NCBI GenBank assembly: GCA_016840065.1
Contig: JAEOTB010000010.1
Span: 12,342 to 76,341, forward strand
Direction of reading: 5' to 3'
DNA length: 64,000 nucleotides
DNA from: Candidatus Hermodarchaeota archaeon
GTDB lineage: Archaea > Asgardarchaeota > Hermodarchaeia > Hermodarchaeales > Hermodarchaeaceae
Shown piece by piece: positions 15,449 through 46,307 of the stretch. How positions within the stretch are numbered: the first letter of the stretch is position 1; every line of letters begins with the position of its first letter. Below the pieces are notes generated by a model, which ran no database searches, had not been told where the DNA came from, and worked only from the letters and a program-made list of their open reading frames with translations. The position numbers and the translations under genes are program-made.

Positions 15449-15460
15449 TAAACAACACAA

Positions 15461-15640
15461 GGGTCTCTGAGCCGCTGGCTCAACACAGAACCAGGCAGGT
15501 TCATTTGAGCTCTATCTAGACCCTAAACGCCTGGCTGAGGCGGGAGGTCGCAACCCCGGCTGGGGTGGTGCCCGCCTATGATGCAGGAACCAAACACCAA
15601 CCTTGGTCCAGCGTCAGGATTGGATAAGATTTGGACAACG
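15461..15640 (+). ncRNA. Candidate structured ncRNA or structured 3' UTR containing a K-turn motif
   Basis: GC-rich island in an otherwise AT-rich spacer. Domain 1 is closed by GGGTCT(15461-66)/AGACCC(15518-23) and holds two 5-bp hairpins. Domain 2 is a long hairpin (15530-15587) with CUGA (15535-38) opposite UAU-GAUG (15577-83), next to a 6-bp GGCGGG/CCCGCC stem. That arrangement is a canonical K-turn on the + strand only. Confidence 0.3.
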
Positions 15641-15727
15641 GTATAGATTAGCAACTGTTTTCAGGCAGAAAAAACTATTATATTGTGTGTTTGCGTTCTG
15701 TAATTATTAGTTCTTGGGGAATATAGC

Positions 15728-16126
15728 GTGTCAGTTGCTGCCAGCGTAAAAGAGATTGTTGAAAAAATTGGGCACCGCCTTGACTCATTATCTGAAGAAA
15801 TGAAGGAACTCCGTGTGGCTGTGGAGAAGCTAGCTGAAGAATCTGAAAAAAGAATGAAAAAGGTCCTTGAGCAGGCTAATACGTTGATTCAGTTACTTCA
15901 GCAAGAGGTTTCAACCTTCGAAGAACAACGTCATCTACTAGAGTCACAAATCACAGCTGAACTGGATAGAGTGAAAAGAATAACTCAACTTAGTGACCTA
16001 GAAGATGCAGTCCACACCGTTTCAGAAATCGTAGATGAATTTGTAAACAACATTGACCTGGATAAAGTGCTTGAGGCTGTCCAGCAGCTTGAAGCAAAGC
16101 ATGGTACTGATTCAGAAGGCGGGTGA
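15728..16126 (+). CDS. Hypothetical small coiled-coil protein
   Basis: 132-aa highly charged helical ORF with a GTG start. It overlaps the next gene by 4 nt, suggesting operon coupling. Confidence 0.5.
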   Translation: MSVAASVKEIVEKIGHRLDSLSEEMKELRVAVEKLAEESEKRMKKVLEQANTLIQLLQQEVSTFEEQRHLLESQITAELDRVKRITQLSDLEDAVHTVSEIVDEFVNNIDLDKVLEAVQQLEAKHGTDSEGG

Positions 16127-16596
16127 GTATGTTGACAGAGAAGCCAAAACCCGATAAATCCGCATCCTCTCAGCAATCAGACGATTCCACGCTGATTCCC
16201 TTTCTCACTCAGGCTTTTTCTAATCTTTTCAGCCGAGTTACTGCGGTATCTGACGAGCTAGCAAAATTGAAGGCAACAGTTGGTAAGATTGACGAGTTGA
16301 ACAAGTCAGCCTTAGCAAGCGTGGTGCCAAAATTCGAGGAGATCCTACTGAATCTCCAGAAGCAGCGAAGAAGCAGCGTGACTCATCTTTCTCGGCTTGC
16401 TGAAACAATTACTCAGGAGTTTGAAGCACTTAATGAAACCCGCTCCGCAAGCGTGGACCAAAGAGTTCTATCACTTCTTGCGAAGACACTCCACGCGACC
16501 CAACAAGCCCTCTATTGCCTTCGCTTAGAAGGCTTCATCAGGAGAATCATGGAACTTAAGCAGGAATTGAAACCTGCTAAAGAGAAGCCCAAATAG
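16123..16596 (+). CDS. Hypothetical small coiled-coil protein
   Basis: 157-aa helical ORF whose start overlaps the stop of the previous gene. Confidence 0.5.
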   Translation: MSMLTEKPKPDKSASSQQSDDSTLIPFLTQAFSNLFSRVTAVSDELAKLKATVGKIDELNKSALASVVPKFEEILLNLQKQRRSSVTHLSRLAETITQEFEALNETRSASVDQRVLSLLAKTLHATQQALYCLRLEGFIRRIMELKQELKPAKEKPK

Positions 16597-17219: not shown

Positions 17220-18245
17220 ATGGATTTCTCAGCTAATATTTCTTCTGAAAAGGCGCGAAGGATAGGGCTCCATTTTAGAAAACTCAAACCAGAAGCTGAA
17301 GATTTCTTAGATGATCGATTCTTCCCTAGCGCCGAGGAGGATTCAGAAAATGTGGCGCGGTTTTTCTTCTTCATCACTGGAATCGATCACCGCACCAGTC
17401 CGCCAGGGAAAAGCTTTGAAGGGTTCGTAGATGACGAATATTTCCAAGGTGCTGACCTGCTATGGCATCTTGCATTAAGGAAGTACCGCGAAAACCCGGG
17501 CTTCTTTGAACCACTACAAATGGCTCGAATTACTACAAAGGATGTTGAGAATTGGTTAACCGTATATCAACCTGTTCGGGTCACAATACGTAATCCAAGC
17601 CAGCGTGCTGATCTGCTTAGTGATTGTGGACAGAAACTAGCAAGCCTCTATGGTGGTTCAGTGCTCACTCTTCTTAATCAAACCAAAAATAGAATATCAG
17701 CGCCCTCAAGTAATGTACTTGGGCTTCTAGACCGCCTCGCTGGGTTCAAGGCTTATGAGGATCCCGTCCGGAAGAAGAGTTTTCTTCTACTCAAGTTCAT
17801 CATACGTCGGCGGCTCTGGACTCCTGAGGATCCAGAGAATCTCCGTATTCCTGTTGACAACCACTTGATTCGGATAGCTTTACGCACAGGTATAGTCAAA
17901 GTTTCTTATGGTTTTGAAGAGACATTACGTGATGGACACGCAATAACAGCTGCCAATGATGTGGTTCTACGCCAAGTTGTATCTGATGCATTTTCAGAGG
18001 TAGCCCATTATGCGAAACAACCAGTTCTTGAGCTAGACGATTTCCTATGGCATTTTGGTAGGCTCTGCTGCACTGCAGCTTCGCCGGTATGCAATCAAGG
18101 TTGTTCAACTCGTTGTTTTGTCGCAACTGAATTACTTCCTTCTTCTTGTGAACTTCAATGTCCTCTAGCTGAAGCGTGTACTGCGAATACTGAAATCTTA
18201 TACCGCGAGATAAAGGAGCCAAAACTCGATACTTGGTACTACTAG
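17220..18245 (+). CDS. QNG1/DUF2419-like protein (queuosine-salvage N-glycosylase family) with a C-terminal Cys-rich tail
   Basis: Blocks FFFFITGIDHRT, RADLLSDCGQKLASLYGGSVLTLL, KKSFLLLKFIIRRRLW, IPVDNHLIRIALRTGIV and LDDFLWHFG parallel conserved blocks of eukaryotic QNG1 (C9orf64) as I recall them. There is an extra tail, CCTAASPVCNQGCSTRCF...CELQCPLAEAC. Start set at ATG 17220 to avoid overlap with the convergent gene. Confidence 0.5.
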   Translation: MDFSANISSEKARRIGLHFRKLKPEAEDFLDDRFFPSAEEDSENVARFFFFITGIDHRTSPPGKSFEGFVDDEYFQGADLLWHLALRKYRENPGFFEPLQMARITTKDVENWLTVYQPVRVTIRNPSQRADLLSDCGQKLASLYGGSVLTLLNQTKNRISAPSSNVLGLLDRLAGFKAYEDPVRKKSFLLLKFIIRRRLWTPEDPENLRIPVDNHLIRIALRTGIVKVSYGFEETLRDGHAITAANDVVLRQVVSDAFSEVAHYAKQPVLELDDFLWHFGRLCCTAASPVCNQGCSTRCFVATELLPSSCELQCPLAEACTANTEILYREIKEPKLDTWYY

Positions 18246-20008
18246 CTACCAGAAGGGGGAGTGTCGGATTTATGTCTGTAAATGTATTTTCCGATAAACC
18301 GTTCCTGGCTTTTCAAGATTGGAGGAGACCAAGAGACTATAATGCCATTTTCTGCTTCTCTGATATTTGGTTCTGGAATTTCCTCGGGAACTGCAACATA
18401 TTCGAAACTCGGTGGAATGAGATCCCAAAGCTTGGGACGAGCGAGGCTAGACTCGCTCATATTGATAAATGTCAGAGTAACAGTTAATTCGCCCTTATTG
18501 GGGCCTGGTGATACAGTACGAGTTTTATGAAGTTTACGAAACGCTTTTTCTACTTTTAATGTCGGCGCAGTCAGTGCCAACAAAGTAGCACTAGCTGCAG
18601 GACCTGGGGGGAAGGTATTCGCCTCTACCGTCAGGGGAAGGATGTGTTCCTGTTCAGGTTCTGGTGTTCGAGCAATCGTTGTATACTTCACTATCATCTG
18701 CTCTCCAGGCTCGACAGCGACTTGTCTTTCAAACAAGTCAGTAACGTGGATAGTAACGACACGCTCTGTGGGTGAATCTCTCTTCTTAGGGCGAACAGTG
18801 ACTTTGATTTTCTGTGTAATCGGCTTCTCTTCTATCCAGACTTGAACCTGGACCTTATCTGGTGCATCAAAGCCAGCAGGAATCGTATCAAAGAAGGTAA
18901 CCTCGTTAAAGTTAGAGGTTCCGATGTTCTTTGCTTCAAGTGAAATAGCTACTGGGCTAGGCTCCCAAGCAGGCAATTCCGAAGGCCTAACGGTTTTATT
19001 ACATTCTATCCGTAAAACTGGGACACTGGCTTCTTCTTTCTCAACTGTCCCTACTAAACTCTGAACGATGGATGCCTCTACTCGATAGAAGGCGACAATA
19101 TCAAATTCGGGGTTCTCTTCCTTTGTATCAAACTCGTAACCCCAAAACTCTCCAGGTTCTAGCTTGTGATCCAGTGTTCCTTCAAAGAGTACCCTGCTGT
19201 CTGGGGCAGTCATGACCACTTGTATTCGTTCAATCCGGATAGGAAAATCACTAGTGTTCTTGAGTGTAGCATTGCAGCGCCAAATTCCTCGCCTAGTTGA
19301 ATCCTCTGTTTTCTCAATGTTTACCTCACACTCTGTAACTCCTCGCATTATTGGCATCAGTCGACTGCGACTTAGATTAGGAATATTGTAGGTAACATTG
19401 AGTTTTCCTGTTTGGACTGGTGTCGAGTCATCAGCGGTAAGGGTGGCCCGAACCAGCAGAATGGCTACACGCTCAGGTTCCAATTCCTTGATTGTCCATA
19501 CGACCTTTCCAGCTTGTTGATCGTACTCCATCATTCCAATAGGAATGTTCTGTGGTTCAACTCCCTTGAAAGCAGGGGGAATTGTTTTGGTTACCACGAT
19601 ATCCGAGATTTTCCCACCTGAACGGTTTCGAAGGGTGATGGTGAACTCGACAGGCATTGAATGCCCAAACACAAACGCTTTGTTTATCCCAGATCGCTCA
19701 TAACATGTGTCAACAACCTCGGACACGGAAAGCATCGGCACATCCAAATCCTTAATGATGAATTCCTTTTCCCATTCTCCGAGTGGATCAAGTTGACCGA
19801 TTTGAAATGAGTCAGTTCCAAGAGTGGACCTATTCGGGCTATTAGGTTCCATTTCAGCATCCCAAATTGATACCCGTCGCGACATATTGCGAACTGTCAC
19901 TCTCCCTCGTGGATCAAATCTAGAAATCGAATTGTCAGCATTTAAGACAGTATGTTCAAATTCTCTTATCTTAATAGTAAGCCCAATCGGTTCGTCCGCC
20001 ACGCCCAA
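18242..20008 (-). CDS. Large cytoplasmic protein built of repeated beta-sandwich (DUF11/CARDB-like) modules
   Basis: 588 aa with no signal peptide or TM segment. A signature recurs along the protein: x-N-x-S/G...V...D/K-x-I-P-x-x-F (ITLRNRSGGKISDIVVTKTIPPAF; LEAKNIGTSNFNEVTFFDTIPAGF; LTFINMSESSLARPKLWDLIPPSF). Confidence 0.5.
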   Translation of the reverse strand: MGVADEPIGLTIKIREFEHTVLNADNSISRFDPRGRVTVRNMSRRVSIWDAEMEPNSPNRSTLGTDSFQIGQLDPLGEWEKEFIIKDLDVPMLSVSEVVDTCYERSGINKAFVFGHSMPVEFTITLRNRSGGKISDIVVTKTIPPAFKGVEPQNIPIGMMEYDQQAGKVVWTIKELEPERVAILLVRATLTADDSTPVQTGKLNVTYNIPNLSRSRLMPIMRGVTECEVNIEKTEDSTRRGIWRCNATLKNTSDFPIRIERIQVVMTAPDSRVLFEGTLDHKLEPGEFWGYEFDTKEENPEFDIVAFYRVEASIVQSLVGTVEKEEASVPVLRIECNKTVRPSELPAWEPSPVAISLEAKNIGTSNFNEVTFFDTIPAGFDAPDKVQVQVWIEEKPITQKIKVTVRPKKRDSPTERVVTIHVTDLFERQVAVEPGEQMIVKYTTIARTPEPEQEHILPLTVEANTFPPGPAASATLLALTAPTLKVEKAFRKLHKTRTVSPGPNKGELTVTLTFINMSESSLARPKLWDLIPPSFEYVAVPEEIPEPNIREAENGIIVSWSPPILKSQERFIGKYIYRHKSDTPPSGS

Positions 20009-29449: not shown

Positions 29450-30208
29450 ATGTCTACTCTTCGATGCCCTCAATGCCACCATAGAGTCCATCCACAGGAT
29501 CCGACTTGTGGGTTCTGTGGCTTTAGGTTTAGATATGATCGGTTTGAGCGGGTTCTTCCCTTTATGCGGAGACCAGAACGTCGCTGGCAGGGACGGCTTT
29601 CACTAAGGCAACGTTTGTGGTCGACACTAACTGTTCCAAGCATCGCTTTCTGGGACATCGCCCGGGACCCTGACAGAGCCGGACCGTTTCTAATATTCCT
29701 TGGAAACATTCTCTCCATATCTCTCTTTTACCTCCTGATAATAATGAAGACCACTAGTACTGCGAGTCTTCTCTATGGCTTTTTAGGGGTCTTCCTGATA
29801 TATTCTCTTCTTCATCTGGTCTACAATCTACTCTTCTACGGTATAATACACATCATTATCCGTCTTTCAGGAAGGAAGGGGCCGTTCGGGGACACATTCA
29901 TCCTTGGTCAATACTCTGCATTGCCTCTGCTGCTCGCTAATCTACTATCACTAGTAGTTCTGGCAATGTTTCTACCTTCTGTTCCAGTTTCAGAATTAAT
30001 GTTCATAGTCTATCCTTACCAGTCTATCTGGCTTGTTTTCTGGATTCTCACAGCCATAGCCTCACTGTGGGGAGCAGTTCTCCTGGCATTGGGAATTCGT
30101 GAGCGCTATCATATGTCAACCAGTTTAGCATTCATGGCTACATTCACGGTAACGGTGATAGTTGTAATGCTAGGAATATTTGCCAGACTTTCATTGCCGA
30201 TTATTTAA
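29450..30208 (+). CDS. Multi-pass membrane protein with an N-terminal zinc ribbon (Yip1-domain-like)
   Basis: CPQCHHRVHPQDPTCGFCG, followed by about five hydrophobic helices. The topology and N-terminal cytosolic segment resemble the Yip1 family. Confidence 0.5.
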   Translation: MSTLRCPQCHHRVHPQDPTCGFCGFRFRYDRFERVLPFMRRPERRWQGRLSLRQRLWSTLTVPSIAFWDIARDPDRAGPFLIFLGNILSISLFYLLIIMKTTSTASLLYGFLGVFLIYSLLHLVYNLLFYGIIHIIIRLSGRKGPFGDTFILGQYSALPLLLANLLSLVVLAMFLPSVPVSELMFIVYPYQSIWLVFWILTAIASLWGAVLLALGIRERYHMSTSLAFMATFTVTVIVVMLGIFARLSLPII

Positions 30209-31280
30209 TGAGAACAAGAAGCTTTAGGGGTTGAGCGAGGCTCTTATCATTAATGAAAATTGGCTCCTTCTTCTTCACGCGCATTCGCCCGAGAATCTGG
30301 TCGTCGGATAATATTCGTCCCCGGAACATAATCTTGGGGGCTAATAGCCCAAAGGTCATGATGAGCCTGTTCTTCAACTCGGTTACGGATTCACCTCGAC
30401 CAACCGTGAATATCTCACCTTTTATCCGGAACCGATCACTGCAAAGAAAACAATTTGGATTCAAAGCTAACTTGAGAGTGGTGAATCTCTGGTAGAGGCC
30501 ATCATAGAAAAGGAAATTATCAAGGGCTTTACCAATACCCAGCAAATGCTTAAGCGCTTCTTGAAACTGAATACCAGCGATGACAGTAGCCACACTCAAT
30601 AACGCAGGAAACTTGGGAGGCGGCTCCTCAGTCTTACGACGCTGACCTGGTGGAGTGCAAGCCTTCTGTAAACGCTCTTGAGGGATGAGGGGCTGACATT
30701 CTAAGCAGGGAGTCTGAAACGGAATAACCCGTTGCACATTTCCCCACCACCCAAACATACCTCCATGGATTAGTGGTTTCTTTTTTTGTACGCAGAGGGA
30801 GTTGAGCCAGCGGCGTGCTTCGAAGTTGTCAAGCCCATCTACAATGAGGTCTACTTCGTCCCAGATGGTGTGGGGGACCTGCTGGATGGCTCTGTTTAGT
30901 GAGAGGACTTGGACATCAGGGTTTGCTGCTCGGAGTCTTTGGCCTGCTATAACCGCCTTTGGTTCTCCAATATCTTGGTCAGTGTAAAGGAATTGTCGGC
31001 TCAGATTAGACATTTCAATTGTATCGTAGTCAACAACTACTACTTTTCCTATCCCTGTAAGAACAAGATCAAGTGCAGTTATGGTACCTAGTGCGCCAAC
31101 ACCAGCCACGAGCACAGAGGAACGTGCCAGTTTTTCCTGATCCCAACCATCCATCAAGAGTTGCCTTGCATATCGATCAAATGTATGATAGATAGGTGGG
31201 CGCTTTTCCTCTGGCTTTGCTTGTTCTACCACAGCTAAGACCTCTGTATTTGGTCCCATCCAGCATGACGGCGTATCCAT
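30201..31280 (-). CDS. Ubiquitin-activating enzyme E1-like (ThiF/MoeB fold) with a C-terminal extension
   Basis: VLVAGVGALGTITALDLVLTGIGKVVVVDYDTIEMSNLSRQ nucleotide-binding motif, two CxxC pairs (CLEC, CFLC), and a roughly 85-aa tail. The start overlaps the 3' end of the E2 gene. Confidence 0.85.
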   Translation of the reverse strand: MDTPSCWMGPNTEVLAVVEQAKPEEKRPPIYHTFDRYARQLLMDGWDQEKLARSSVLVAGVGALGTITALDLVLTGIGKVVVVDYDTIEMSNLSRQFLYTDQDIGEPKAVIAGQRLRAANPDVQVLSLNRAIQQVPHTIWDEVDLIVDGLDNFEARRWLNSLCVQKKKPLIHGGMFGWWGNVQRVIPFQTPCLECQPLIPQERLQKACTPPGQRRKTEEPPPKFPALLSVATVIAGIQFQEALKHLLGIGKALDNFLFYDGLYQRFTTLKLALNPNCFLCSDRFRIKGEIFTVGRGESVTELKNRLIMTFGLLAPKIMFRGRILSDDQILGRMRVKKKEPIFINDKSLAQPLKLLVLIK

Positions 31281-31696
31281 TCACGGACGGTTCGTTCAAA
31301 CTGCGCTGGGTTCTGTTTGACTTGGCGTGCAGCACTCTGATTTAGCGGGTCATCGGGGTTAGGGAAGTTCAAGAGATTACGCAAGGTTTCAACGAGACCA
31401 GTTAGTGAAGTGCTAGGTAACCAATCCTTTCCTATAATCCCAACACACACTCGTCCCCTATGAATGTTAGGGTGCCATATCTTGGTTACGAATCGAACCT
31501 TTGGCGGCTCATATGGGAACGCTCGAGGAACTATAATCTGAATTACAAAGACTCCTCCGTCGTAAACCCCAGTACCAAGGATGAAGCCCTGCCAGCGTCT
31601 AAGATCGCCATTGATTGGCTGGAATGAGGGCTCCTCAGTTTCCATGCTCTTCGCTTCTAGGGCAAGCCTTGCCCAAAAGTCCTCTTCTGATAGCAT
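31235..31696 (-). CDS. Ubiquitin-conjugating enzyme E2 (UBC fold)
   Basis: IWHPNIHRGRVCVGIIGKDWLPS matches the HPN...C active-site block of UBC enzymes. Confidence 0.85.
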   Translation of the reverse strand: MLSEEDFWARLALEAKSMETEEPSFQPINGDLRRWQGFILGTGVYDGGVFVIQIIVPRAFPYEPPKVRFVTKIWHPNIHRGRVCVGIIGKDWLPSTSLTGLVETLRNLLNFPNPDDPLNQSAARQVKQNPAQFERTVREWIRRHAGWDQIQRS

Positions 31697-31892
31697 ATAT
31701 GATACGCCTCGGTGGGAAAAACGTTCCCTGACTCAGAGATTTGTCATCTGCCTTGAATATTTTTTCGGTATAAAAATATATATTTCGGACGAAATTGCCC
31801 TCGTCTATCATAAATTTAGCATAACTTCTCGATAGAGTTGCATAATAAAGGGAGGGAGTGGCGCCCGTGAGGTGCACCATTCCTAAAGAACC

Positions 31893-32129
31893 TCAGCCAC
31901 CTTCAGTTCGAGTGATGAGGTACAAAACATCCGAGTGTGTTATTCCTTCTCCCTTTATGGTCTGTTCATCGTTCATCTGATGACCACGGTAGCTTAGAAC
32001 GACGATGTTCGGAGGGATGCGTCGCATCTGAGCAACCTTCCGTCGGATTTCGCCGATCGTAGTGTTCGGTTCAACCTCTAGGAAGACTGAATCGCCACCA
32101 CCGATTGCAGGTCGGATTTCAATACGCAT
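31893..32129 (-). CDS. Ubiquitin-like beta-grasp modifier ending in Gly-Gly
   Basis: 78 aa. LEVEPNTTIGEIRRKV..IPP...L.Y.G.Q..DEQT...LYLITRTEGG-stop aligns by eye with the ubiquitin blocks LEVEPSDTI / IPP / LRLRGG. Confidence 0.85.
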   Translation of the reverse strand: MRIEIRPAIGGGDSVFLEVEPNTTIGEIRRKVAQMRRIPPNIVVLSYRGHQMNDEQTIKGEGITHSDVLYLITRTEGG

Positions 32130-32138
32130 TTTAACTAC

Positions 32139-32384
32139 TCACCTTTTGACGGGTTTCAATTTTCTCAATGGGATGCGCGAACGACAAATCGGGCAGACTC
32201 CTTTGACCTTCACCCATTCAGCGAGGTGGCCGTAATGGGCGGGGTTTCCGCATTTCGGACAGAACACTTTGGTCTGTCCTTCGCGAATCGGTAATCCACA
32301 GACGCTGCATTGTTGCTGAGGAGTGGTCCAATCCCACGTCCCAATTTCTTTGATACGTGTGATTACGAATCTATCCTCAGTCAT
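32139..32384 (-). CDS. RING/PHD-like cross-brace zinc-finger protein (putative E3)
   Basis: 81 aa with ligand pattern C-x2-C-x12-C-x2-C-x4-H-x2-H-x10-C-x2-C. Its stop lies 9 nt upstream of the ubiquitin-like gene start. Confidence 0.7.
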   Translation of the reverse strand: MTEDRFVITRIKEIGTWDWTTPQQQCSVCGLPIREGQTKVFCPKCGNPAHYGHLAEWVKVKGVCPICRSRIPLRKLKPVKR

Positions 32385-32548
32385 TGTAGCATTCCTTGTC
32401 GTTTTCGCTTGGCTCCTCTACTAAGCGCGTTAATAAAAATCTATGCAACTAGAGCTGATTAATTGTAGATACTTGTGGAGTGATTAATCAAAGCTTTTAA
32501 GGCTGGTGTGAGTTACCTTGAACGTGCGCTTCAGGGGCGGATAATGCT

Positions 32549-33076
32549 TTGTCAGAGGCACCAAAGTTTAAAATTGAGATTGAAGCAATTAAGACACCCA
32601 AAGGATTAGTGCCTACTGTTGAATCTCTGAGGCGAATAGTCAAAGCGCTCAATGTACTTGACGCAGATTTTAATCGGATGAATCTTAAAATGGAGGCAAA
32701 TATTCGTGCGCTCCTTCGGGAGGTAAAAACACTACAGAAGCTAGTGGCTGACGACACAATAGCCTCCGAGTCATCTGTGGAGAGACTTGGCATCCTTGTT
32801 GAAAGAATGGATTCGCTAGAGAAGAACTTGAGAAAACGAAAGGCAGCACCTGCTGACGACTCTACAGCCGCATCTTTGAAGGCACTAAAGCGGGAGATCA
32901 CTCCTACTCTTACAAAGGCTGCTAAGCGTTTGGAGGAAACAATGGCGCTCTTTGAACGACGTCTTGACGAGTTTCTCCGCGAACTTAAGAGTAGTATACT
33001 TCTTGCAGTTCGCCAAGCCACTTCTACATCTTCTTCTCCAAAGTCTACTTCAAGAAGGCGCTCTGGAAGGAGCTAA
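32549..33076 (+). CDS. Hypothetical coiled-coil protein at the head of the ESCRT-I-like operon
   Basis: 175-aa helical ORF with a TTG start and an S/T/R-rich tail. It is co-oriented with the UEV gene 75 nt downstream. The antisense 174-aa ORF looks like a shadow. Confidence 0.45.
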   Translation: MSEAPKFKIEIEAIKTPKGLVPTVESLRRIVKALNVLDADFNRMNLKMEANIRALLREVKTLQKLVADDTIASESSVERLGILVERMDSLEKNLRKRKAAPADDSTAASLKALKREITPTLTKAAKRLEETMALFERRLDEFLRELKSSILLAVRQATSTSSSPKSTSRRRSGRS

Positions 33077-33150: not shown

Positions 33151-33918
33151 GTGAGTTTTATGGCACAAGCAGTGCGAAGGAAAACAGAAATGGCGATTGC
33201 TCGCGAAGCCCAGTTGATGTTCCGCAGGGCCCCAACATTCGCTCCTGTAGGCAACAATCTGCGTCGATGGCGCGGAAAAATTAAGGGTGGTCCACGTGGT
33301 AGAAAGGAATTCCTCGTTGAAATCATTGTGCCACCCAACTTCCCGGCTCAGCCGCCAGTTGCTCGCATGTTGACGCCAACGAAACATCCTCGAGTAGATA
33401 GTGAATCTGGTGCTATTCATTTACGAATCGTAACTCAATGGCAGCCTCATTATCACATCTACCAAGTTGTAAACAGTATCAAGGGCCTCTTTGCTAGAGA
33501 ACCTCCAAAAGTGGATGAAACCCAAGAACCTCCAGAGGTTGAGATGCCTGAAAGCGAAGAACTTCTGCAACGACGGTATCAAAGACTGGAACGAGAAGTC
33601 TCTCAACTCACTAGGAAGATTCAGGAACGTGATGAGCAGATTGCTCGGTTGTCTGCTCAAAGAGACACACATCGAATTCCAGTGAGTGAAGCATCAGGTG
33701 AAGAAGAAATCGATGCACTAATCCTACCAAGTGATCCAATGGAACGTCAAAAACTTGAGCTAGAGAGTGAAAGGCTAGCCATTGAAGATTTGCTACAAAA
33801 CTTAGAGGAGAAGTTTGAAAACGCTGAAATTACAGCCACAGAGTATACCAAGCTCTACAAGCGGTACAAGCGTCGTCTCTACCAAATCGAGAAAGCTCTT
33901 CAGGAGCTAGGTAAATAG
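33151..33918 (+). CDS. UEV-domain protein (Vps23/Tsg101-like ESCRT-I subunit) with a coiled-coil stalk
   Basis: UBC-like fold (RRWRGKIKGGPRGRKEFLVEIIVPPNFPAQPP...KHPRV) but no catalytic Cys after the HP motif. The C-terminal half is coiled coil. ATG 33160, preceded by GGTGA, may be the true start. Confidence 0.75.
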   Translation: MSFMAQAVRRKTEMAIAREAQLMFRRAPTFAPVGNNLRRWRGKIKGGPRGRKEFLVEIIVPPNFPAQPPVARMLTPTKHPRVDSESGAIHLRIVTQWQPHYHIYQVVNSIKGLFAREPPKVDETQEPPEVEMPESEELLQRRYQRLEREVSQLTRKIQERDEQIARLSAQRDTHRIPVSEASGEEEIDALILPSDPMERQKLELESERLAIEDLLQNLEEKFENAEITATEYTKLYKRYKRRLYQIEKALQELGK

Positions 33919-33941: not shown

Positions 33942-34583
33942 ATGGCTGTACGAGAACGGCGGCGCGAGCGAAGGCGGGTCCAAGAACTAAAAGCAGATTT
34001 GTACGGGAGCATTGCAACCCTCGATAGCATCGTGAGGAAGTTCGAAGAGGGTGATCTGAACCCCACACTCTACAAGCGTCAACTCCGCTCTTTGGTTCGA
34101 GACACAATAACAGCACGGCAGCTGCTTGAGGCAGAGGGCTCCAGTTGGGAAGAGTTTCTACTCGAGGAACACATTACGGAAAGATTTCCCGAAGCCTCTG
34201 GAAAACTTCAGATTGCAGAACAGGCTCCTCAAGGAGAAACGCCTGAAGAATTTACGGGTCAAACTTCTGCCAAAATGGCAGCAAAAGCAGCGGACATTGT
34301 CTCTGACATAATAACCCTAATTGATATCGCCAAGCTTGGTGATGTCGCTAGGATGGATCTAATAGTTCCCTTACTTGATGATGCGATTATTCTACTCACG
34401 AAATACCCGAATTTTCCTCCTGATTACTGGATTCTCGTTGCAATAAAAGAGTGGAGGGATAGGCTTCAACAGCGAGACCCGCGTGACAAACTCTCACCTG
34501 AAGAGGCGAAACATCTAGAATTCCAGTCGATACGCTGGTTGAATGATTTCAAAAGACGTCTCCGGGAGATGGCTACCGAGTAA
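33942..34583 (+). CDS. Vps28-like ESCRT-I subunit
   Basis: N-terminal LYGSIATLDSIVRKFEEGDL..YKRQLRSL resembles the Vps28 core. C-terminal IITLIDIAKLGDVARMDLIVPLLDD...EWRDRL...LSPEEAKHLEFQ resembles the Vps28 CTD blocks (FITLMDALKL / DQLHPLL / ..L.E.Q.R.LLFD). Confidence 0.8.
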   Translation: MAVRERRRERRRVQELKADLYGSIATLDSIVRKFEEGDLNPTLYKRQLRSLVRDTITARQLLEAEGSSWEEFLLEEHITERFPEASGKLQIAEQAPQGETPEEFTGQTSAKMAAKAADIVSDIITLIDIAKLGDVARMDLIVPLLDDAIILLTKYPNFPPDYWILVAIKEWRDRLQQRDPRDKLSPEEAKHLEFQSIRWLNDFKRRLREMATE

Positions 34584-34601: not shown

Positions 34602-34898
34602 TTGATGAAGGGTTCGGCGTGGTCATATGCAGAGATGCGGGAGCGGCTGGTGAACGTTATAAACAAAGCCAACCTACAAATCAATGCCGAGTATGTCCTT
34701 GAGGACCTCGATGTCGTTGTTGCCTTCGCTCAAGCGATGCTAGGTGAAAATCACCACATTACAAACGAGGCACAAGAATGGTATGCGTATTTCTGGGATA
34801 AGTATCGATACAACCTAGAACAACATGTAGAGGAAAATGAGGCGCGGCGTTTTGCAATGTGCGCAGAGATGTGGCTGAATCATATTCGTCGAATTTAG
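34602..34898 (+). CDS. Hypothetical 98-aa helical protein inside the ESCRT-I/II operon
   Basis: ORF between Vps28 and Vps22. Its stop overlaps the AGGAGG ribosome-binding site of the next gene. No recognisable motif. Confidence 0.4.
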   Translation: MMKGSAWSYAEMRERLVNVINKANLQINAEYVLEDLDVVVAFAQAMLGENHHITNEAQEWYAYFWDKYRYNLEQHVEENEARRFAMCAEMWLNHIRRI

Positions 34899-34910: not shown

Positions 34911-35648
34911 GTGTGTGGGCTTCATGAAATAGAAAAACGGGTGGAGATGGATGCCGCTTACCGGCGGAAACGTGCAAAGCTTATGCTCAAAGAACTGGAA
35001 CATATGCTCCAAACCGTAGCAGAACTCGGTAGCCAAGCAGAAAACTTCGAAAAATCTTACGGAGAAATCCTGGAAGATATGCCAGAACTTGGCGAAAAGG
35101 TTGCAGCAATTGCCCGGGAACTTGGGATAGCTCTACCTAGTGTTTCTACACCCACTGAAGTTGAAGATAAGCCAGGGCTGTTTGAGCGCATCACAGGACG
35201 TGGGCGTTTTTACGAACAGCTAGGATTACAGATACTTGATTTAGCTAAAAGGCGGAGGAGCGAAACAGGCGGAATTATGACTCTGGCTGAAGTCGTAATT
35301 CTAGTGAATAAACGTCGCCGTCACAACGTTTCACAAGTTGATGTAGCACGTGCTATCCACCATCTTACCAGTGCTAAACTGATTCCTGGGCTTCACAAAC
35401 TCAAGTCCGGTATAAAAATCGTCGAGTTTGTACCCCGTGAATTTACTGAAGACCAAGTCATCGTGCTTTCCCTTGCCAGCCGAACTGGCTTTACAACACT
35501 TGAAGATGTTATGACTCAAACCCGATGGAACAGAGAACGTGCACTCGCAGCACTTCAAAGCCTCAAAGAATCTGGCGCTGCGAAACTTGACGAATCATAT
35601 GCTCATGGAACGCGGTACTTCTTCCCTGGGCTAACTCCTTCGGCATAA
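34911..35648 (+). CDS. Vps22/Snf8-like ESCRT-II subunit (EAP30 domain)
   Basis: FYEQLGLQILDLAKRRRSETGGIMTLAEVV...VSQVDVARAIHHL parallels the EAP30 block FY.ELGVQI.E.C......NGG...L.EL.....DD..RAI..L. GTG start 8 nt after AGGAGG. Confidence 0.8.
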   Translation: MCGLHEIEKRVEMDAAYRRKRAKLMLKELEHMLQTVAELGSQAENFEKSYGEILEDMPELGEKVAAIARELGIALPSVSTPTEVEDKPGLFERITGRGRFYEQLGLQILDLAKRRRSETGGIMTLAEVVILVNKRRRHNVSQVDVARAIHHLTSAKLIPGLHKLKSGIKIVEFVPREFTEDQVIVLSLASRTGFTTLEDVMTQTRWNRERALAALQSLKESGAAKLDESYAHGTRYFFPGLTPSA

Positions 35649-35697: not shown

Positions 35698-36435
35698 CTA
35701 AATTTTTATTTCGAGAACTTCCTGTTCCTTGTCTAGCCAGCGGGCCCTCTTCTGTTTCACAAGAATGTCAAGGATTTCGCGTAGTTCAGACTTTGGAAGG
35801 CTTTCTAGATCATCACGGTGCTCTTTTAGCTTGAATAACGTAAATGTTGTACGTCCAGTCTCTAATGCCCAACGGTGAATCTCGTCTGCCCACTCCTCGT
35901 CTGTCTTCCAGAAAACACGGATTATTCCCTCCGCTTCATCAATCCAGCGACCTAATTCCTGTTTCACAAGACTCCCAAGTATGAATCTGACGGCACGCTG
36001 ACGGTCAGAACGAATATCATTGAAGGGGCTAAGCATTACTAGCCTACGAGTGGAGACAATATGTAGGAGGACTTCCCTGCAGAAATCAAGTGTGAATCCT
36101 GCCCATTCAGCGCTCCACTGTTCAATGTCTCCTTCTGAACTGGGAATCGCGAACATGAAAGCATAGCGACCTCGCTTTGCAATCCAGACATATCTTGATT
36201 TGAGTTGTTTTACTGCTAGTCTCGCAAGCTCCTCAACACTTCTCTCTTCTTCCTCTTCAACAGGGAGTACAAGAACCGCAGCCTCTTCCTCTGGTTCATC
36301 CTCTTCTTCAGTTGAACGGCTAGTCTCTTGTTCTGCCTTTTCAAGGACCTGGATGTACTCCTCCTCGCTGAGGTGTACTGGTTTGGGTTTATCCTCCTTC
36401 TCCCTTGAACGCCTTCTTGGCTTCTCCTTGACCAA
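35698..36435 (-). CDS. Vps25-like ESCRT-II subunit with an acidic N-terminal extension
   Basis: RVFWKTDEEWADEIHRWALETGRTTFTLFKL matches the Vps25 C-terminal block (WR.PEEW...I..W....G....V.TLYEL). Starts 14 nt downstream of the Vps4 stop on the same strand. Confidence 0.7.
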   Translation of the reverse strand: MVKEKPRRRSREKEDKPKPVHLSEEEYIQVLEKAEQETSRSTEEEDEPEEEAAVLVLPVEEEEERSVEELARLAVKQLKSRYVWIAKRGRYAFMFAIPSSEGDIEQWSAEWAGFTLDFCREVLLHIVSTRRLVMLSPFNDIRSDRQRAVRFILGSLVKQELGRWIDEAEGIIRVFWKTDEEWADEIHRWALETGRTTFTLFKLKEHRDDLESLPKSELREILDILVKQKRARWLDKEQEVLEIKI

Positions 36436-36449
36436 TATTCATCCCCTTT

Positions 36450-37613
36450 CTATGAGCCGTGCTTCTCTTCCCATTCTTTATACTTCTGTAATTCTTCCGG
36501 TGTTATTGTAGTATGAATGTGGCTCAAACTCTCAACAAAATCCTTCTGAGTGACAGGTCTAACTGGTTTCTCCTTATCTCGGATGTCTCCTGTGAGATCC
36601 AGTTCACGAATCGGTTCAAGAGAAGCCTCCCGGCAAATATGGGCAATATCTGAACCGGCATAACCCTCAGTCATATTTCCTAACTGTTCAAAATCCACAT
36701 CACTATCTAACTCGATGCCCCTCGTGTGTATCTCAAAAATCCGTACACGAGCATCTTGCTCGGGTGTGGGAACATAAATACGCCGCTCAAAACGACGACG
36801 AAAAGCAGGATCGATATCCCAGGGCCGGTTTGTTGCGCCTAATACAACTACTCTGTCTCCCTTCCGGCTCTTCATACCATCAATTTCAACAAGGAATTGA
36901 GTCTTCAGACGCCGCTCTCCACCCACTTGATCACTACCCCGCTCAGCTGTTAAAGCATCAACTTCATCTAGAAAAACAATAGATGGCTGAGAATTCCTTG
37001 CAGCAGTAAAAAGCTGCTTAACCAGCCTTTCCGATTCTCCCAACCACTTAGAAACAAGCGACCCGGCGTCCGCGTTGAAGAAGGTGGCCTCTGTTTCATT
37101 AGCTACGGCTTTAGCAATCAAGGTTTTTCCGCAGCCTGGAGGTCCGAAGAGCAATACTCCTCTCCAAGGTCGGCGCGCTCCAGTGAATAAATCCGGACGG
37201 AGGATTGGTAGAATAATGGCTTCGCGTAAAGCTTGCTTTGCTTCTTCTAGATTCGCCACATCATCCCATTTCACACTGGGTTTCTCTCGAACAACCAAGC
37301 TCGCAATATCATCCTGCAACTCCGAATCTGGACCCTCAACCTCTGTATCCCCAATATCGGGGCCAGAACCCCCTACTCTAACACGCCCACTCCTTAGTAA
37401 TTTCGCCCGGGCAATATACTGCTCTGCCCTCTCCAAGGCAATAATACGCATCTTAGGCATCCTAGAAATCCTTGCTGCCTTGGCAAGAATATCAGCAGCT
37501 TCGATGTAAATGGAAGCAGCCTCTGATCGCTTCCCCGCTCTATCGTATTCAGCTGCCTTCCCCGCTTTTTCTTCAGCGATTCTCATAAGGTATTGTGCAC
37601 TGCTCAACTCCAA
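36450..37613 (-). CDS. vps4: Vps4-type AAA+ ATPase with an N-terminal MIT domain
   Basis: MIT-like helices (AGKAAEYDRAGKRSEAASIYIEAADILAKA), Walker A GPPGCGKT, Walker B IVFLDEVD, and the C-terminal helix typical of Vps4. Start is TTG 37613 or ATG at codon 10. Confidence 0.95.
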   Translation of the reverse strand: MELSSAQYLMRIAEEKAGKAAEYDRAGKRSEAASIYIEAADILAKAARISRMPKMRIIALERAEQYIARAKLLRSGRVRVGGSGPDIGDTEVEGPDSELQDDIASLVVREKPSVKWDDVANLEEAKQALREAIILPILRPDLFTGARRPWRGVLLFGPPGCGKTLIAKAVANETEATFFNADAGSLVSKWLGESERLVKQLFTAARNSQPSIVFLDEVDALTAERGSDQVGGERRLKTQFLVEIDGMKSRKGDRVVVLGATNRPWDIDPAFRRRFERRIYVPTPEQDARVRIFEIHTRGIELDSDVDFEQLGNMTEGYAGSDIAHICREASLEPIRELDLTGDIRDKEKPVRPVTQKDFVESLSHIHTTITPEELQKYKEWEEKHGS

Positions 37614-37684: not shown

Positions 37685-37846
37685 ATAGAGTCTATGCGGA
37701 ACGTAAGGGAGTAGAACCTCTCGTGCGTGTTACACGTCCCAGCAATGACAGCCATTTACAAAGACTTAATTTGTTGTATTCTAATTAACTTATGTCGAAA
37801 AGATAATAAGCCTCTCTTTAGCTGGAGGAAACTGGAAGCTAATAAA

Positions 37847-38458
37847 ATGTCAGCAATAAGACGATTTAAGCAATGGCTCGGAGGCAAGCCTTCACTCAAA
37901 CAACTTATCTTTAGACTTGATGTTTTCTGTCGGAAATTAGATTTGCAGCGGAAGATGTTAGAGAAGGAGGCTAGTAAGAGTCGTCAGAAGGCGAAGAGGT
38001 ATCGGCTTCAGGGTAACATGGATGCTGTTCGTCTTTATCTACAGCATCATTTGCGTTTTCAGAAATGGGCTCTTTCTGTTGACGCATATCGCTTACGTAT
38101 TGAAGGGTTACAAACCCAGTTACGACAGAGCGAGGCAATGGGAGACCTTGCGAAGATTCTTGGCCAGCTAAACGCTGCTTTGGGTGGATTGAAAACCCAG
38201 GTCAAGGTGCCCGAAGTTGCCCAATTGGTGGATCAGATTGAAGGGAACCTTCGACACTTTGAAATGACCCAAGAGATTGCTGATACGGGTATGGAACGTA
38301 TGTCGGTTTCAACTGAAGTTACTGATGGTGAAGTTAGCCAGGCATTAACTGATCTTGACCAAGAAATCGAAGTAGAAACTGGTACAGCACTTCCACAGCC
38401 AGAACAGCGAGTTTCACAATTAGAAGAAGAGATTAGGAGACTAAAGGAGGAAAGCTAG
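37847..38458 (+). CDS. ESCRT-III (Snf7 family) protein, tentatively Vps2/24/46-like
   Basis: Basic N-terminal helical hairpin (RKLDLQRKMLEKEASKSRQKAKRYRLQGNMDAVRLYLQ) and an acidic C-terminus ending in the amphipathic helix QLEEEIRRLKEE. Start set at ATG 37847. Confidence 0.8.
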   Translation: MSAIRRFKQWLGGKPSLKQLIFRLDVFCRKLDLQRKMLEKEASKSRQKAKRYRLQGNMDAVRLYLQHHLRFQKWALSVDAYRLRIEGLQTQLRQSEAMGDLAKILGQLNAALGGLKTQVKVPEVAQLVDQIEGNLRHFEMTQEIADTGMERMSVSTEVTDGEVSQALTDLDQEIEVETGTALPQPEQRVSQLEEEIRRLKEES

Positions 38459-39115
38459 ATGGCAAAAGGAAGATTTAGCTCTCTCTGGGAGAGACTTTTC
38501 CCAAGGAAGCCTGAGCCAAAGGAAGACACTGTAGCTCGTATTCATCGTGTCGTCGATTTACTTGAGGTTCGCGGTCGGCAATACGAGACAAAAGCAAAGG
38601 ATTCTCGGGTCAAGGCGATTCGTTATGTGAAACGCGGAGACCGGAAAGCGGCAAAGCTTCAGCTTAGGAGGCGTTCAAGATACCTCCGAAAAGCTAGACT
38701 GGTTGAACAAGAAATCGACCTAATGGAGCGAGGAGTCGAAGCAATCGAGCAAGCCAAAGGCGAAGCAGAAGTCATGGGAGCGCTTCGCGGTATCGGAGCC
38801 ACCCTCGAACAGCTACGTGAAACTGCGTCACCTGAATCTGCCCGGGAAACCATCCTAGAAACCCAAGCACTGATTGAGGAAGCAGAGTCAACAGAAGAAA
38901 TTCTTGGTCTTGGCTTAGACGACGAAGAGTTGGATGCAGATGTCGAAGCAGAGCTGGAAGACATCGAGACATTAGTCGCTCTTGAAGAAGCAGGACAACT
39001 ACCTACAGTTCCTGTAGGCGAGTCAGAGACTACAACAGGAGAACTAACGTCAGAGGAACGACGTGAGCGTACCCGCAAAGAACTTGATCGCCTTAGGAAG
39101 GAATTAGAAGAATAA
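38459..39115 (+). CDS. ESCRT-III (Snf7 family) protein, tentatively Vps20/32/60-like
   Basis: The ATG directly abuts the preceding stop. Basic hairpin (KAIRYVKRGDRKAAKLQLRRRSRYLRKA), acidic DDEELDADVEAELEDIE block, and a C-terminal RKELDRLRKELEE MIM-like helix. Confidence 0.85.
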   Translation: MAKGRFSSLWERLFPRKPEPKEDTVARIHRVVDLLEVRGRQYETKAKDSRVKAIRYVKRGDRKAAKLQLRRRSRYLRKARLVEQEIDLMERGVEAIEQAKGEAEVMGALRGIGATLEQLRETASPESARETILETQALIEEAESTEEILGLGLDDEELDADVEAELEDIETLVALEEAGQLPTVPVGESETTTGELTSEERRERTRKELDRLRKELEE

Positions 39116-39162: not shown

Positions 39163-40659
39163 TTAAAGGAAGGATTCATCAGTTACAGAGTGTTCTCCAG
39201 TGGCTTCACTTATTCTAGTTTCAACAAGATAAAGCTCCCGGCTCAATGAACGATATTGCTTGAAGAAACTTTCGTTAGAGATTTTTCCTTCATCGAATTG
39301 CCGCTTCAATAACTTCAACGTAGCTTGGAGGCTATACTTCTGTTGCCGTAACTGAAAGATATGGTCGTGGGTGAGCGGACCCACCTTGCTTCTAGAAGGG
39401 GGGTAGAGTGTAGGTGTATGGCTTTGCGGTGAAGTAGGATGAGGGCGCCGAATCGAGGGAACTGAGGGGAGATCATTGGTAACTGCCTGATCTATTAGTT
39501 TATCTAGCGCATTGCGTAGCGCCATAATATCCACTTTCAGTTCTGTCACTCGTATAGATCCCTTTATAGTAACAAGACTGTGTTCGCTGAAATTCTGGGC
39601 TAAAGTAATGGTCTTTGAAATCTCCTGGAGTGTTTCAGAAGACCCCCGAAGCCTTAATTCCTCATCATCAGTAATGACAATAAGTCTTCGGCGGAGGCGC
39701 CCCTCCTCTCTTATACCAGTAATCGCTGGCAGAGGTAGAGAACGAATCACAGATGTGTCACGCTTAATCAAACCGGTTTGACCTAGAAACAGGAGTCGTC
39801 GGGTTGTCACGAAAAGAGTGCCTTGGCTCATCCTTTTTCCTGTCTCTGTTTTACCCAGACTGATAGAGGGAATTGCAGCAACAGCCTTTTCCTCTTCACC
39901 GATGTCAAGGTGATCAGAGTATTTAGTAAATATCGTGTGCCAGCGCTGCAGAGGTTGTAGGTCTTGTTCGATTGTCTCTAACACATCTTTTAATTCCTTA
40001 ACTAGCTCTATGCAATACGTTTCGTAATCGTCGATGTCCTCTTGGATGCCCTCTATTAGTCCTGCTAGAAGTGGAAAATCTGAAACCTGCCATTTTTCTG
40101 GATGGATGAATCTTGCTTTGCTTGCTCTGTGTCGTTCAACTATCTTTTGAGCTCGAAATAATATTCGTTCATTTACTGCTGGAATAGCTTTCGTGATAAG
40201 TTCCAGTAAATTCTTCTCTATCTCAGGATTGTGGAGAAAACCGCCTGTACGAAGCTCTCTAATCTGCCACCGTACTGTTCTCAAGCGGGTAGCAAACCCT
40301 GTTAGTAATTCATGTCCCACTCGAAGCTCATAGTAAGCTGTGCGAAATCGGCTAACTAGGTTCTGCCGCATGTTGTGTATTGGTGTCACGTTGTCTGAAT
40401 TGCAGTTAACACATAGGTTCTCACGGCGGGTTGCAAGTTGTGCTGGCTCTCCGCATTCTCTGCAAACTGTCCCCTCATCAGTTTGCTCAATGGCACTAGG
40501 ACCACACCGACTACAGGTATCGAATTCACTTACTTTGTGTCGAGAACATTTAACGCAGAAAACATAACCACAATCCATGCAGCACCGCTCAACTACACGG
40601 ATGCGGCACACGGGACACAACGAATTGTTACTTTGTGGTCCTTGTTTTGGTAGGGACAT
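39163..40659 (-). CDS. Multi-zinc-ribbon protein with a PH/GRAM-like domain and a SHOCT-like C-terminus
   Basis: The first 90 aa carry seven CxxC pairs. The central block GTLFVTTRRLLFLGQTG...LPLPAITGIREEG...LIVITDDEE resembles GRAM/GLUE/bacterial-PH beta-sandwich signatures. The C-terminal LKRQFDEGKISNESFFKQYRSL is SHOCT-like. Confidence 0.5.
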   Translation of the reverse strand: MSLPKQGPQSNNSLCPVCRIRVVERCCMDCGYVFCVKCSRHKVSEFDTCSRCGPSAIEQTDEGTVCRECGEPAQLATRRENLCVNCNSDNVTPIHNMRQNLVSRFRTAYYELRVGHELLTGFATRLRTVRWQIRELRTGGFLHNPEIEKNLLELITKAIPAVNERILFRAQKIVERHRASKARFIHPEKWQVSDFPLLAGLIEGIQEDIDDYETYCIELVKELKDVLETIEQDLQPLQRWHTIFTKYSDHLDIGEEEKAVAAIPSISLGKTETGKRMSQGTLFVTTRRLLFLGQTGLIKRDTSVIRSLPLPAITGIREEGRLRRRLIVITDDEELRLRGSSETLQEISKTITLAQNFSEHSLVTIKGSIRVTELKVDIMALRNALDKLIDQAVTNDLPSVPSIRRPHPTSPQSHTPTLYPPSRSKVGPLTHDHIFQLRQQKYSLQATLKLLKRQFDEGKISNESFFKQYRSLSRELYLVETRISEATGEHSVTDESFL

Positions 40660-45914: not shown

Positions 45915-46307
45915 TTATTTAAAGAGCTTTGATATTTCTCTACCAAAATGCCTAAACACTGAAACAGTATGTCCAAGTGCTTCAATTTTAACCCCTGCGC
46001 CAATCAGAACAAGTGGCCCAGCGTCAGTAACAATGATATAGCCCTTTTCTCCCCGAACAATGAGTTCGTATAATGGATCAAATTTCAACTTGGTAGCTGC
46101 TTCGACTCCAGTCTGTAATAAGACTGCTGAAATTGCCGACATCAAGTCTGGGTCGATATCCACTCCTTTTGTTGCGCTATAGGCAACACGCCGTCCACCT
46201 TTCGTGACTGCAGCTAGGGTCTCTAACTCGGTGAATTGGGTAATCTCCCGCAGCATCAATACTAGTTGCTGTGCTTCGTTCTCGCCCATCACAAACGGTT
46301 GCAACAA
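45915..46307 (-). CDS. Roadblock/LC7 (MglB-like) domain protein
   Basis: About 125-130 aa with an alpha-beta-alpha pattern (LETLAAVTKGGRRVAYS...YIIVTDAGPLVLIGAG) typical of the Roadblock/LC7 family. Start is uncertain (TTG 46307 or ATG 46289). Confidence 0.65.
   Translation of the reverse strand: MLQPFVMGENEAQQLVLMLREITQFTELETLAAVTKGGRRVAYSATKGVDIDPDLMSAISAVLLQTGVEAATKLKFDPLYELIVRGEKGYIIVTDAGPLVLIGAGVKIEALGHTVSVFRHFGREISKLFK

Follow-up and report, generated by a model that had tools for sequence, protein, structure and literature searches.

The stretch of DNA considered here, termed the window throughout, comprises 64,000 nucleotides (nt) of Candidatus Hermodarchaeota archaeon (assembly GCA_016840065.1, contig JAEOTB010000010.1, positions 12,342-76,341, forward). 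On its minus strand, the list of open reading frames (ORFs) and a direct reading of the strand give four co-directional ORFs at 32139-32384, 31893-32129, 31235-31696 and 30201-31280, which encode a small putative RING finger E3 of 81 amino acids (aa), a ubiquitin-like modifier of 78 aa, an E2 ubiquitin-conjugating enzyme of 153 aa and an E1-like activating enzyme. Genes encoding ESCRT-I, ESCRT-II and ESCRT-III (ESCRT, endosomal sorting complex required for transport) as well as Vps4 start beyond a divergent spacer of 164 nt (32385-32548), which lies between the RING gene and the gene for a 175-aa protein. Sequence comparison and analogy to characterized homologues make it very likely that this region is a eukaryote-type ubiquitylation cassette, built into the Hermodarchaeota ESCRT neighbourhood and predicted to work. 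Such a cassette had been proposed in an earlier note on this DNA, and Pfam profiles matched all four proteins accordingly, with ThiF (PF00899) at 215.8 bits (6e-64), UQ_con at 117.2 bits (cut-off 27, E = 5.5e-34), ubiquitin (PF00240) at 45.2 bits (cut-off 25.4, E = 8e-12) and zf-RING_2 at 27.9 bits, marginally above its cut-off of 27.3.

Results

The Four Gene Products

An alignment of 23 homologues shows no variation at H75, P76, N77 and C84 of the E2 (31235-31696, minus), and the family profile matches UBE2K (E = 2e-47), whose active-site Cys aligns with C84. The catalytic Cys, on whose presence the earlier note had made its reading depend, is hence retained together with the HPN motif. The E2 has 97% identity to a gene of Candidatus Hermodarchaeota archaeon YT_063 and 95% to one of H02S_Hermod_124, in line with a Hermodarchaeota genome as the source.

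The modifier (31893-32129, minus) also matched Rad60-SLD, and no match to ThiS or MoaD was obtained in the Pfam scan. Aligned with human ubiquitin, it has 25 of 76 residues in common; the ubiquitin of the YT_063 contig is identical to it. As noted before, its translation ends exactly at Gly-Gly (...RTEGG-stop). For comparison with relatives, hidden Markov models (HMMs) built from the window proteins were searched against 80 species-level loci. All Hermodarchaeota loci with a detected modifier gene share the RTEGG-stop terminus; across all 59 loci with a modifier gene 38 of the proteins end at Gly-Gly and 20 carry extensions. Attachment to target lysines is predicted by analogy to the Helarchaeota and Caldiarchaeum homologues, for which it was shown.

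The E1-like protein carries a nucleotide-binding loop with G60, G62 and G65, which is conserved among 64 sequences along with D, NL..Q and K residues; the GxGxxG glycines are kept in 98% of them. Two zinc CxxC pairs (C192/C195 and C277/C280) and a loop Cys, C208, are present in 100% of these sequences and in all lineages (numbering of the 359-aa ORF; C208 becomes C192 when counted from the 343-aa start proposed below). Within the last 70 residues, a weak match to the ubiquitin family PF00240 spans residues 291-338. Consistently, a profile built from 38 homologues matches ubiquitin in its C-terminal columns 263-321; as a whole it scores 158-186 bits with Uba1 and about 154 bits with Uba3 over roughly 160 columns, and 160 bits with ThiF over roughly 250 columns. 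An AlphaFold2 (AF2) model reached a mean predicted local distance difference test (pLDDT) score of 83.9, with low confidence in the crossover loop. Its top Foldseek match is UBA3 (TMq 0.76, ~405 columns), which includes the C-terminal ubiquitin-fold domain (UFD), whereas the matches to ThiF, MoeB and Uba5 are confined to the adenylation domain (~250 residues). By profile and model, the protein thus carries a UFD, for which a role in E2 recruitment is predicted.

The raw sequence scores are less one-sided. Against the PDB, the E1 reaches 125 bits with Uba1 in two stretches and 108 bits with MoeB/ThiF in one full-length stretch, and in NCBIfam it stays below the cut-offs of MoeB (157.5 vs. 449), ThiF (151.1 vs. 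275), UbaA (129 vs. 450) and also Ube1 (TIGR01408, 91.6 vs. 750). We found no inserted catalytic-Cys domain in the protein, where a loop of only ~35 residues links the first CxxC to the helix that follows; the loop Cys is predicted to be catalytic from its position and conservation. On this sequence and model evidence, the protein is best described as a putative minimal E1 with a MoeB-like core and a UFD, and a similar description, of a minimal enzyme with a ubiquitin-like domain at its C-terminus, was given for the Caldiarchaeum E1 (Hennell James et al., 2017, PMC5654768). A grouping with MoeB/ThiF alongside a MoaD/ThiS partner, which would have spoken against the earlier note, was not found: the NCBIfam scores lie far below cut-off, the protein carries a UFD and the neighbouring modifier belongs to PF00240.

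For the finger protein (32139-32384, minus), Prok-RING_1 was matched in addition (26.7 bits). Its ligand pattern C27, C30, C42, C45, H50, H53, C64, C67 is common to 20 Asgard homologues, including the E3 of the Helarchaeota genome Hel_GB_B, and the N-terminal RF[VI]I..G.W.W segment and Trp57 (the E2-contact Trp) are conserved in the same set. The eight conserved ligands are present, in the order C4H2C2 rather than the cross-brace C3H(C/H)C3. The family profile matches RING-H2 ligases (EL5 at 1.3e-6, Arkadia and RNF24), and the best structural matches of the AF2 model are likewise RING-H2 domains (E = 0.01-0.05), not PHD. Since the homologue search for modelling gave only 4 sequences, this model is poor (pLDDT 58.7) and the fold search merely suggestive. 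We call the finger a putative variant RING-H2, based on profile and fold matches; of its former label as a RING/PHD-like finger, the first half stands and the second is dropped.

Gene Junctions and Transcription Units

The RING stop and the modifier ATG are 9 nt apart, with an AGGTGA overlapping the RING stop codon, and a gap of 196 nt (31697-31892) separates modifier and E2; direct reading reproduced both distances as previously reported. The E2-E1 junction was found to differ from the earlier description, in which the two genes overlap by 25-46 nt. The first ATGs of the E1 ORF, at 31280 and 31259, both lie inside the E2 gene and give proteins of 359 aa (longest ORF) and 352 aa (database annotation), respectively, with the ORF ending at 30201. 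In an alignment of 17 Hermodarchaeota junctions, the sole start column common to all is an ATG or GTG shortly behind the E2 stop. The window's codon in this column is the GTG at 31232-31230; a 2-nt gap separates it from the E2 stop (31237-31235), GAGGT precedes it 7 nt upstream, and it yields an E1 of 343 aa (30201-31232, minus). Upstream of the shared start, in-frame stops occur in four relatives (loci L006, L007, L010 and L012) and a frameshift in a fifth (L004), and the window's upstream ATG arises of necessity from the E2 codons for a conserved Gly-Trp-Asp. Many database homologues have 343 aa, which fits the GTG start, while the window's own entry (P0046) is the 352-aa form. The overlap is therefore probably an artefact of the longest-ORF rule, under which alone it holds, because the shared start follows the E2 stop and relatives carry stops or a frameshift upstream of it. 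Translational coupling of E2 and E1, for which the size of the overlap had served as evidence, is still likely, as the 2-nt gap and the GAGGT would support it.

The gap between modifier and E2 had also been taken as an AT-rich, promoter-sized region dividing two mini-operons. Its coordinates and length are correct, but its AT-richness was overstated: the G+C content is 41.3% compared to a mean of 45.8%, which corresponds to the 13th percentile of 196-nt windows. Support for two units comes from comparison with relatives. The spacer measures 183-201 nt in all 16 Hermodarchaeota loci with both flanking genes and keeps two blocks. The first directly follows the modifier stop (~31855-31883) and is succeeded by a short T-rich stretch (31841-31850); T-rich tracts follow the modifier stop in most relatives. 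Within each of two Hermodarchaeota subgroups (among L003-L018) this first block is strongly conserved, and it differs between them. The second block, ACCGAAAA-nn-TATTyA (31751-31768), is a CCGAAAA..TATT motif with a single occurrence in the window; it stands ~60 nt ahead of the E2 ATG, and a GAGGCG comes after it, ~10 nt from the same ATG. As a feature specific to the window, a second copy of a CCGAAA-TATA-like motif adjoins it at 31769-31788 (minus), which is absent from the closest relatives (L003, L004 and L013).

Similarly, two blocks of the divergent spacer are conserved in 14 Hermodarchaeota loci, namely a TATA-like CATAGATTTTTATTAACG on the minus strand (32428-32445), ~55 nt before the RING ATG and conserved as CATAG-TTTTTAWKAAYG, and AAGCTTTTAAGG on the plus strand (32491-32502), ~47 nt before the 175-aa gene. 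In one Hermodarchaeota locus (L012), a 1.6-kb insertion with a TnpB/IS605-like ORF, judged from its translation only, lies between the 175-aa and RING genes.

Because the motif in the gap shares its geometry with the TATA-like block before the RING gene, it is a candidate for a second promoter, and two transcription units, RING-ubiquitin and E2-E1, are plausible; a terminator after the modifier stop is a guess. An Rfam scan of 29-34 kb returned only a chance snoRNA match and none for the spacer. For a hairpin after the modifier stop, RNAalifold and single-sequence folding gave no compensatory changes and weak z-scores, and no structured RNA is claimed. A small ORF in the gap (31635-31880) was rejected, as it overlaps the E2 start and the spacer indels of relatives are not multiples of three.

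Alternatively, all four genes could be transcribed as one operon from the divergent promoter, with the 196-nt gap being an internal untranslated or processing region instead of a second promoter. The shared direction of the genes, the only mild AT-richness of the gap, a block after the modifier stop with no proven terminator function and the short distance between modifier and E2 (2-23 nt) in Baldr and Caldiarchaeum-like lineages would all agree with a single operon. We nevertheless consider it somewhat unlikely in view of the conserved gap length, the CCGAAAA..TATTyA block at a promoter-like distance and the T-rich tracts of most relatives, which argue for two units.

Deubiquitinase Search

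The earlier note had seen no JAMM/MPN or other deubiquitinase in the window, and our searches agree. Among ~60 window ORFs of at least 90 aa, of which 11 have no assigned family, Pfam and NCBIfam scans found no JAB/MPN, UCH, USP, OTU or Ulp domain, and a regular-expression search found no JAMM motif (HxH..S..D) in any of the long window ORFs. Moreover, an HMM was built from five archaeal JAB proteins, seeded from the JAB beside a Caldiarchaeum-like cassette. It matched three Caldiarchaeum-like loci (L079-81) and two loci of Atabeyarchaeia (L041 and L050); apart from these five, no match was obtained in the window or in the flanks of the other loci (up to 10 kb on each side). In both Atabeyarchaeia loci the JAB/MPN gene lies ~2 kb upstream of the E2 gene, within the ESCRT-ubiquitin neighbourhood, and the ubiquitins extend past Gly-Gly (EGGND and TEGGR), which fits processing by the adjacent JAB/MPN protease.

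ESCRT Neighbours and Gene Order

Beyond the divergent spacer, the plus strand starts with the gene for the 175-aa helical protein (32549-33076), which is syntenic beside the RING gene and always divergent from it across Asgard classes. It gave no significant Pfam or NCBIfam match. It probably belongs to asCOG005522, a part of the cluster that was likened to the Vip insecticidal protein (Lu et al., 2023, bioRxiv 10.1101/2023.07.25.550441). It is followed by UEV-Vps23 of ESCRT-I (33151-33918; UQ_con 2.4e-15, Vps23_core 2.1e-7, UEV 7e-4), a pseudo-E2 with HPR for HPN and His for the catalytic Cys and with a subsequent steadiness box, which is 48% identical to UEV-Vps23 of Hel_GB_B. Vps28 of ESCRT-I (33942-34583; PF03997, 1.3e-12), a conserved 98-aa protein (34602-34898) and the Vps22/36-like EAP30 protein of ESCRT-II (34911-35648; PF04157, 2.5e-25) complete this plus-strand operon. 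The 98-aa protein, syntenic in Hermodarchaeota and Baldrarchaeota, had no Pfam or NCBIfam match and may be an unrecognised ESCRT subunit.

On the minus strand lie Vps25 of ESCRT-II (35698-36435; PF05871, 2.8e-12) and the Vps4 AAA ATPase, matched by its MIT and Vps4_C domains (36450-37613); then follows a tandem pair of ESCRT-III (Snf7) genes on the plus strand (37727-38458 and 38459-39115; PF03357, 1e-16 and 3e-17). The next minus-strand gene (39163-40659) encodes a 498-aa protein whose sole match is a C-terminal Vps23_core (steadiness box; PF09454, 26.8 bits, equal to the cut-off), and which may belong to the Asgard-specific Znr_PH_CC_SB family of Makarova et al. At the other end of the cassette, the plus-strand gene of a membrane protein that combines an N-terminal zinc ribbon with a Yip1 domain (29450-30208; PF04893, 7e-14) converges on the E1 gene with a tail-to-tail overlap of 8 nt.

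As far as the contigs reach, every Hermodarchaeota locus examined keeps the same order: Vps4 and Vps25, then EAP30, the 98-aa protein, Vps28, UEV-Vps23 and the 175-aa protein, divergently followed by RING-ubiquitin and E2-E1, on which Yip1 converges, with LeuRS coming next. A looser order is found in Baldr, Odin, Jord/Freya, Hel, Atabey and Hod/Heimdall-type genomes. Tail-to-tail adjacency of E1 and Yip1 (<150 nt) occurs in 36 of the 67 loci with an E1, namely in Hermod, Baldr, Odin and Hod/Heimdall-type genomes, and not in Hel, Jord/Freya, Atabey, Borr and Caldiarchaeum-like ones. In the literature consulted, Yip1 is mentioned for Hodarchaeia only; this pairing is wider than reported.

It is conceivable, but in our view rather improbable, that the ~190-nt spacer between ubiquitin and E2 is regulatory, combining a terminator or attenuator with an internal promoter, and that Yip1 is a dedicated membrane partner or substrate of the cassette. 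If true, the spacer would let modifier and E3 be dosed independently of E1 and E2, and Yip1 would connect archaeal ubiquitylation with a trafficking factor of the Rab/Yip type.

The gene order itself could also be read as inherited synteny: the cassette would be active with no functional tie to ESCRT and would have its main targets elsewhere, e.g., among proteasome substrates. Ubiquitin and UEV-Vps23 are indeed unclustered in the Heimdall, Kari, Gerd and Jord lineages, and the functionally unrelated LeuRS is equally syntenic. Against this, the RING gene is always divergent from the operon of the asCOG005522-like protein and UEV-Vps23, co-location of ubiquitin and ESCRT genes recurs in several phyla (Hatano et al., 2022), Asgard UEV domains bind ubiquitin, and the Helarchaeota RING binds the UEV domain and directs ubiquitylation of UEV-Vps23. 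We therefore regard mere synteny as quite unlikely and favour a cassette that is functionally tied to its ESCRT neighbours. Such a link had been proposed in the earlier note from gene adjacency, and it agrees with the clustering, RING-UEV binding and UEV-Vps23 ubiquitylation described for related lineages.

Further genes of the window are mentioned for completeness. An actin-family gene lies within 14417-16596 (plus; PF00022, 1.7e-33), followed by two small helical ORFs with weak FlgK and Syntaxin matches. A Roadblock/LC7 protein (45915-46307, minus) and a 588-aa DUF11 protein with a weak match to adaptor-complex medium-subunit domains (18242-20008, minus) may be further eukaryote-signature candidates. 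Among the loci collected, Asgard-type RING-Ub-E2-E1 blocks were also found on DATKTP010000243.1 (L036), here together with ESCRT genes and labelled as the bacterium Candidatus Deferrimicrobium sp., and on JAPDJY010000025.1 (L038), labelled as a Thermoproteota archaeon; both labels probably reflect mis-binning or mislabelling.

Discussion

The arrangement described above suggests a complete route from ubiquitin activation to ESCRT-dependent sorting, whose steps we propose from homology to tested systems. The RING finger and the 78-aa ubiquitin would most likely be expressed from the TATA-like promoter in the divergent spacer, and E2 and E1 from the conserved promoter-like motif in the 196-nt gap, with tight translational coupling within each pair (gaps of 9 nt and 2 nt, respectively). 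Ubiquitin would be made with a free Gly-Gly end and therefore need no maturation. The E1, with its ThiF-type domain, GxGxxG loop, structural zinc site of two CxxC pairs and short crossover loop, is expected to adenylate Gly78 and to form a thioester with ubiquitin through its invariant loop Cys; its UFD would then recruit the E2, allowing ubiquitin to pass to Cys84. The RING-H2-like finger could bind the charged E2 and, via its conserved N-terminal segment, UEV-Vps23's UEV domain, and promote transfer to lysines, including those of UEV-Vps23 itself. Finally, the UEV domain would read ubiquitin and pass cargo on to ESCRT-II, ESCRT-III and Vps4.

Several observations weigh against this proposal. 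The E1 has no separate catalytic-Cys domain and its HMM score lies between those of MoeB/ThiF and of canonical E1s. The catalytic role of the loop Cys is predicted from position and conservation, and a fragment search gave no trustworthy alignment of it with a known catalytic Cys. For the RING finger, the Pfam score barely reaches the cut-off and the AF2 model is of low quality. Promoters and terminator are proposed from conservation only, and the hairpin lacks covariation. Moreover, no deubiquitinase that could reverse the modification was found nearby.

The notion that E1-like protein and modifier instead form a sulphur-carrier or SAMP-type pair (MoeB-MoaD, ThiF-ThiS or UbaA-SAMP) serving cofactor or tRNA thiolation was rejected as barely credible: the E1 does have its highest single-domain scores with MoeB/ThiF and shares their type of zinc CxxC pairs and short crossover loop, but all MoeB, ThiF and UbaA scores stay below cut-off, the E1 has a UFD as in UBA3 and SAE2, its partner matches ubiquitin and Rad60-SLD and not ThiS/MoaD, in every lineage a bona fide E2 and a RING finger share the block, genes for molybdopterin or thiamine were not found among the window ORFs, and homologous cascades conjugate proteins in vitro. 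A ubiquitylation cascade thus remains our favoured interpretation of the four genes.

Both the cassette with its ESCRT link and the occurrence of this arrangement in Hermodarchaeia are already known, and the earlier note was right in not presenting the module as new. The ubiquitin-ESCRT neighbourhood was described by Liu et al. and Makarova et al., the co-location was quantified (Hatano et al., 2022), and tight clustering of ESCRT and ubiquitin genes was reported for Hermod- and Helarchaeia (Lu et al., 2023). Gene clusters of this kind have been reported since 2015-2017, and cascades were reconstituted for Caldiarchaeum in 2017 (Hennell James et al., 2017) and for Helarchaeota in 2023. Few archaeal systems foreshadow eukaryotic ubiquitin-dependent sorting as clearly as this cassette. 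What is added here is at the level of annotation only: an E1 start with better support, conserved candidate blocks for promoter and terminator, which could be useful for expression constructs, a sorting of E1 features into canonical (UFD) and MoeB-like (missing Cys domain) ones together with a clearer view of what is canonical in the RING finger, and the wide E1-Yip1 pairing.

Among known enzymes, UBA3 and SAE2/UBA2, subunits of the NEDD8 and SUMO E1s, resemble the window E1 in having an adenylation domain followed by a C-terminal UFD. Unlike these, the window E1 comes with no gene for a partner subunit, has no inserted catalytic-Cys domain, places its Cys in the short, low-confidence crossover loop and shares only 21-24% identity; presumably it is homodimeric like MoeB/ThiF. 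The bacterial MoeB and ThiF proteins share the single adenylation domain of ~250 aa, the two-CxxC zinc site and the crossover-loop Cys (identity ~30%, TMt 0.86), but lack a UFD, an E2/E3 partner and a ubiquitin-family substrate. Apart from the E1, the finger has its top sequence and structure matches in RING-H2 E3s (EL5, Arkadia, RNF12 and RNF38), with which it shares eight zinc ligands, a RING-like spacing and a Trp before the last Cys pair. It differs from them in the ligand order C-C-C-C-H-H-C-C, where alignment places a CPxC knuckle at Cys3-x-His4 and a His at Cys6, and in its small size of only 81 aa, including a short N-terminal segment for substrate binding.

At the level of whole systems, the operon of Caldiarchaeum subterraneum is similar in its compact Ub-E2-E1 arrangement, in the C-terminal ubiquitin-like domain of its E1 (PMC5654768) and in its small RING finger, in which the third and fourth ligands are displaced (PMC5654768; Fuchs et al., 2018, PMC6043591). 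In contrast to the window, in which no such gene was found, an adjoining Rpn11/JAMM gene there processes a pro-ubiquitin with 9 extra residues; the loop Cys of the Caldiarchaeum E1 is followed by a large insertion, and a link to ESCRT-I/ESCRT-II is lacking, whereas the window cassette is embedded in a full ESCRT neighbourhood.

The Helarchaeota genome Hel_GB_B encodes the same set of E1, E2, ubiquitin, small RING finger, asCOG005522-like protein, UEV-Vps23, Vps28, Vps22/36, Vps25, Vps4 and ESCRT-III, and its E1, E2, ubiquitin, RING and UEV-Vps23 are 45-61% identical to those of the window. Its RING finger has the same ligand pattern and N-terminal segment; the N-terminal loop was shown to bind the UEV domain, and the E1/E2/RING cascade, reconstituted in vitro, mono-ubiquitylates UEV-Vps23 (Lu et al., 2023). 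Helarchaeota differ in order and orientation of E1 and E2, with the E1 gene ~3 kb off on the other strand in one locus (L029), and Yip1 is not adjacent. With UEV-Vps23, ubiquitin, RING finger and an asCOG005522-like protein beside ESCRT-II, ESCRT-III and Vps4, the window conforms to the Asgard ubiquitin-ESCRT type of Hermod, Odin, Baldr and Hel genomes.

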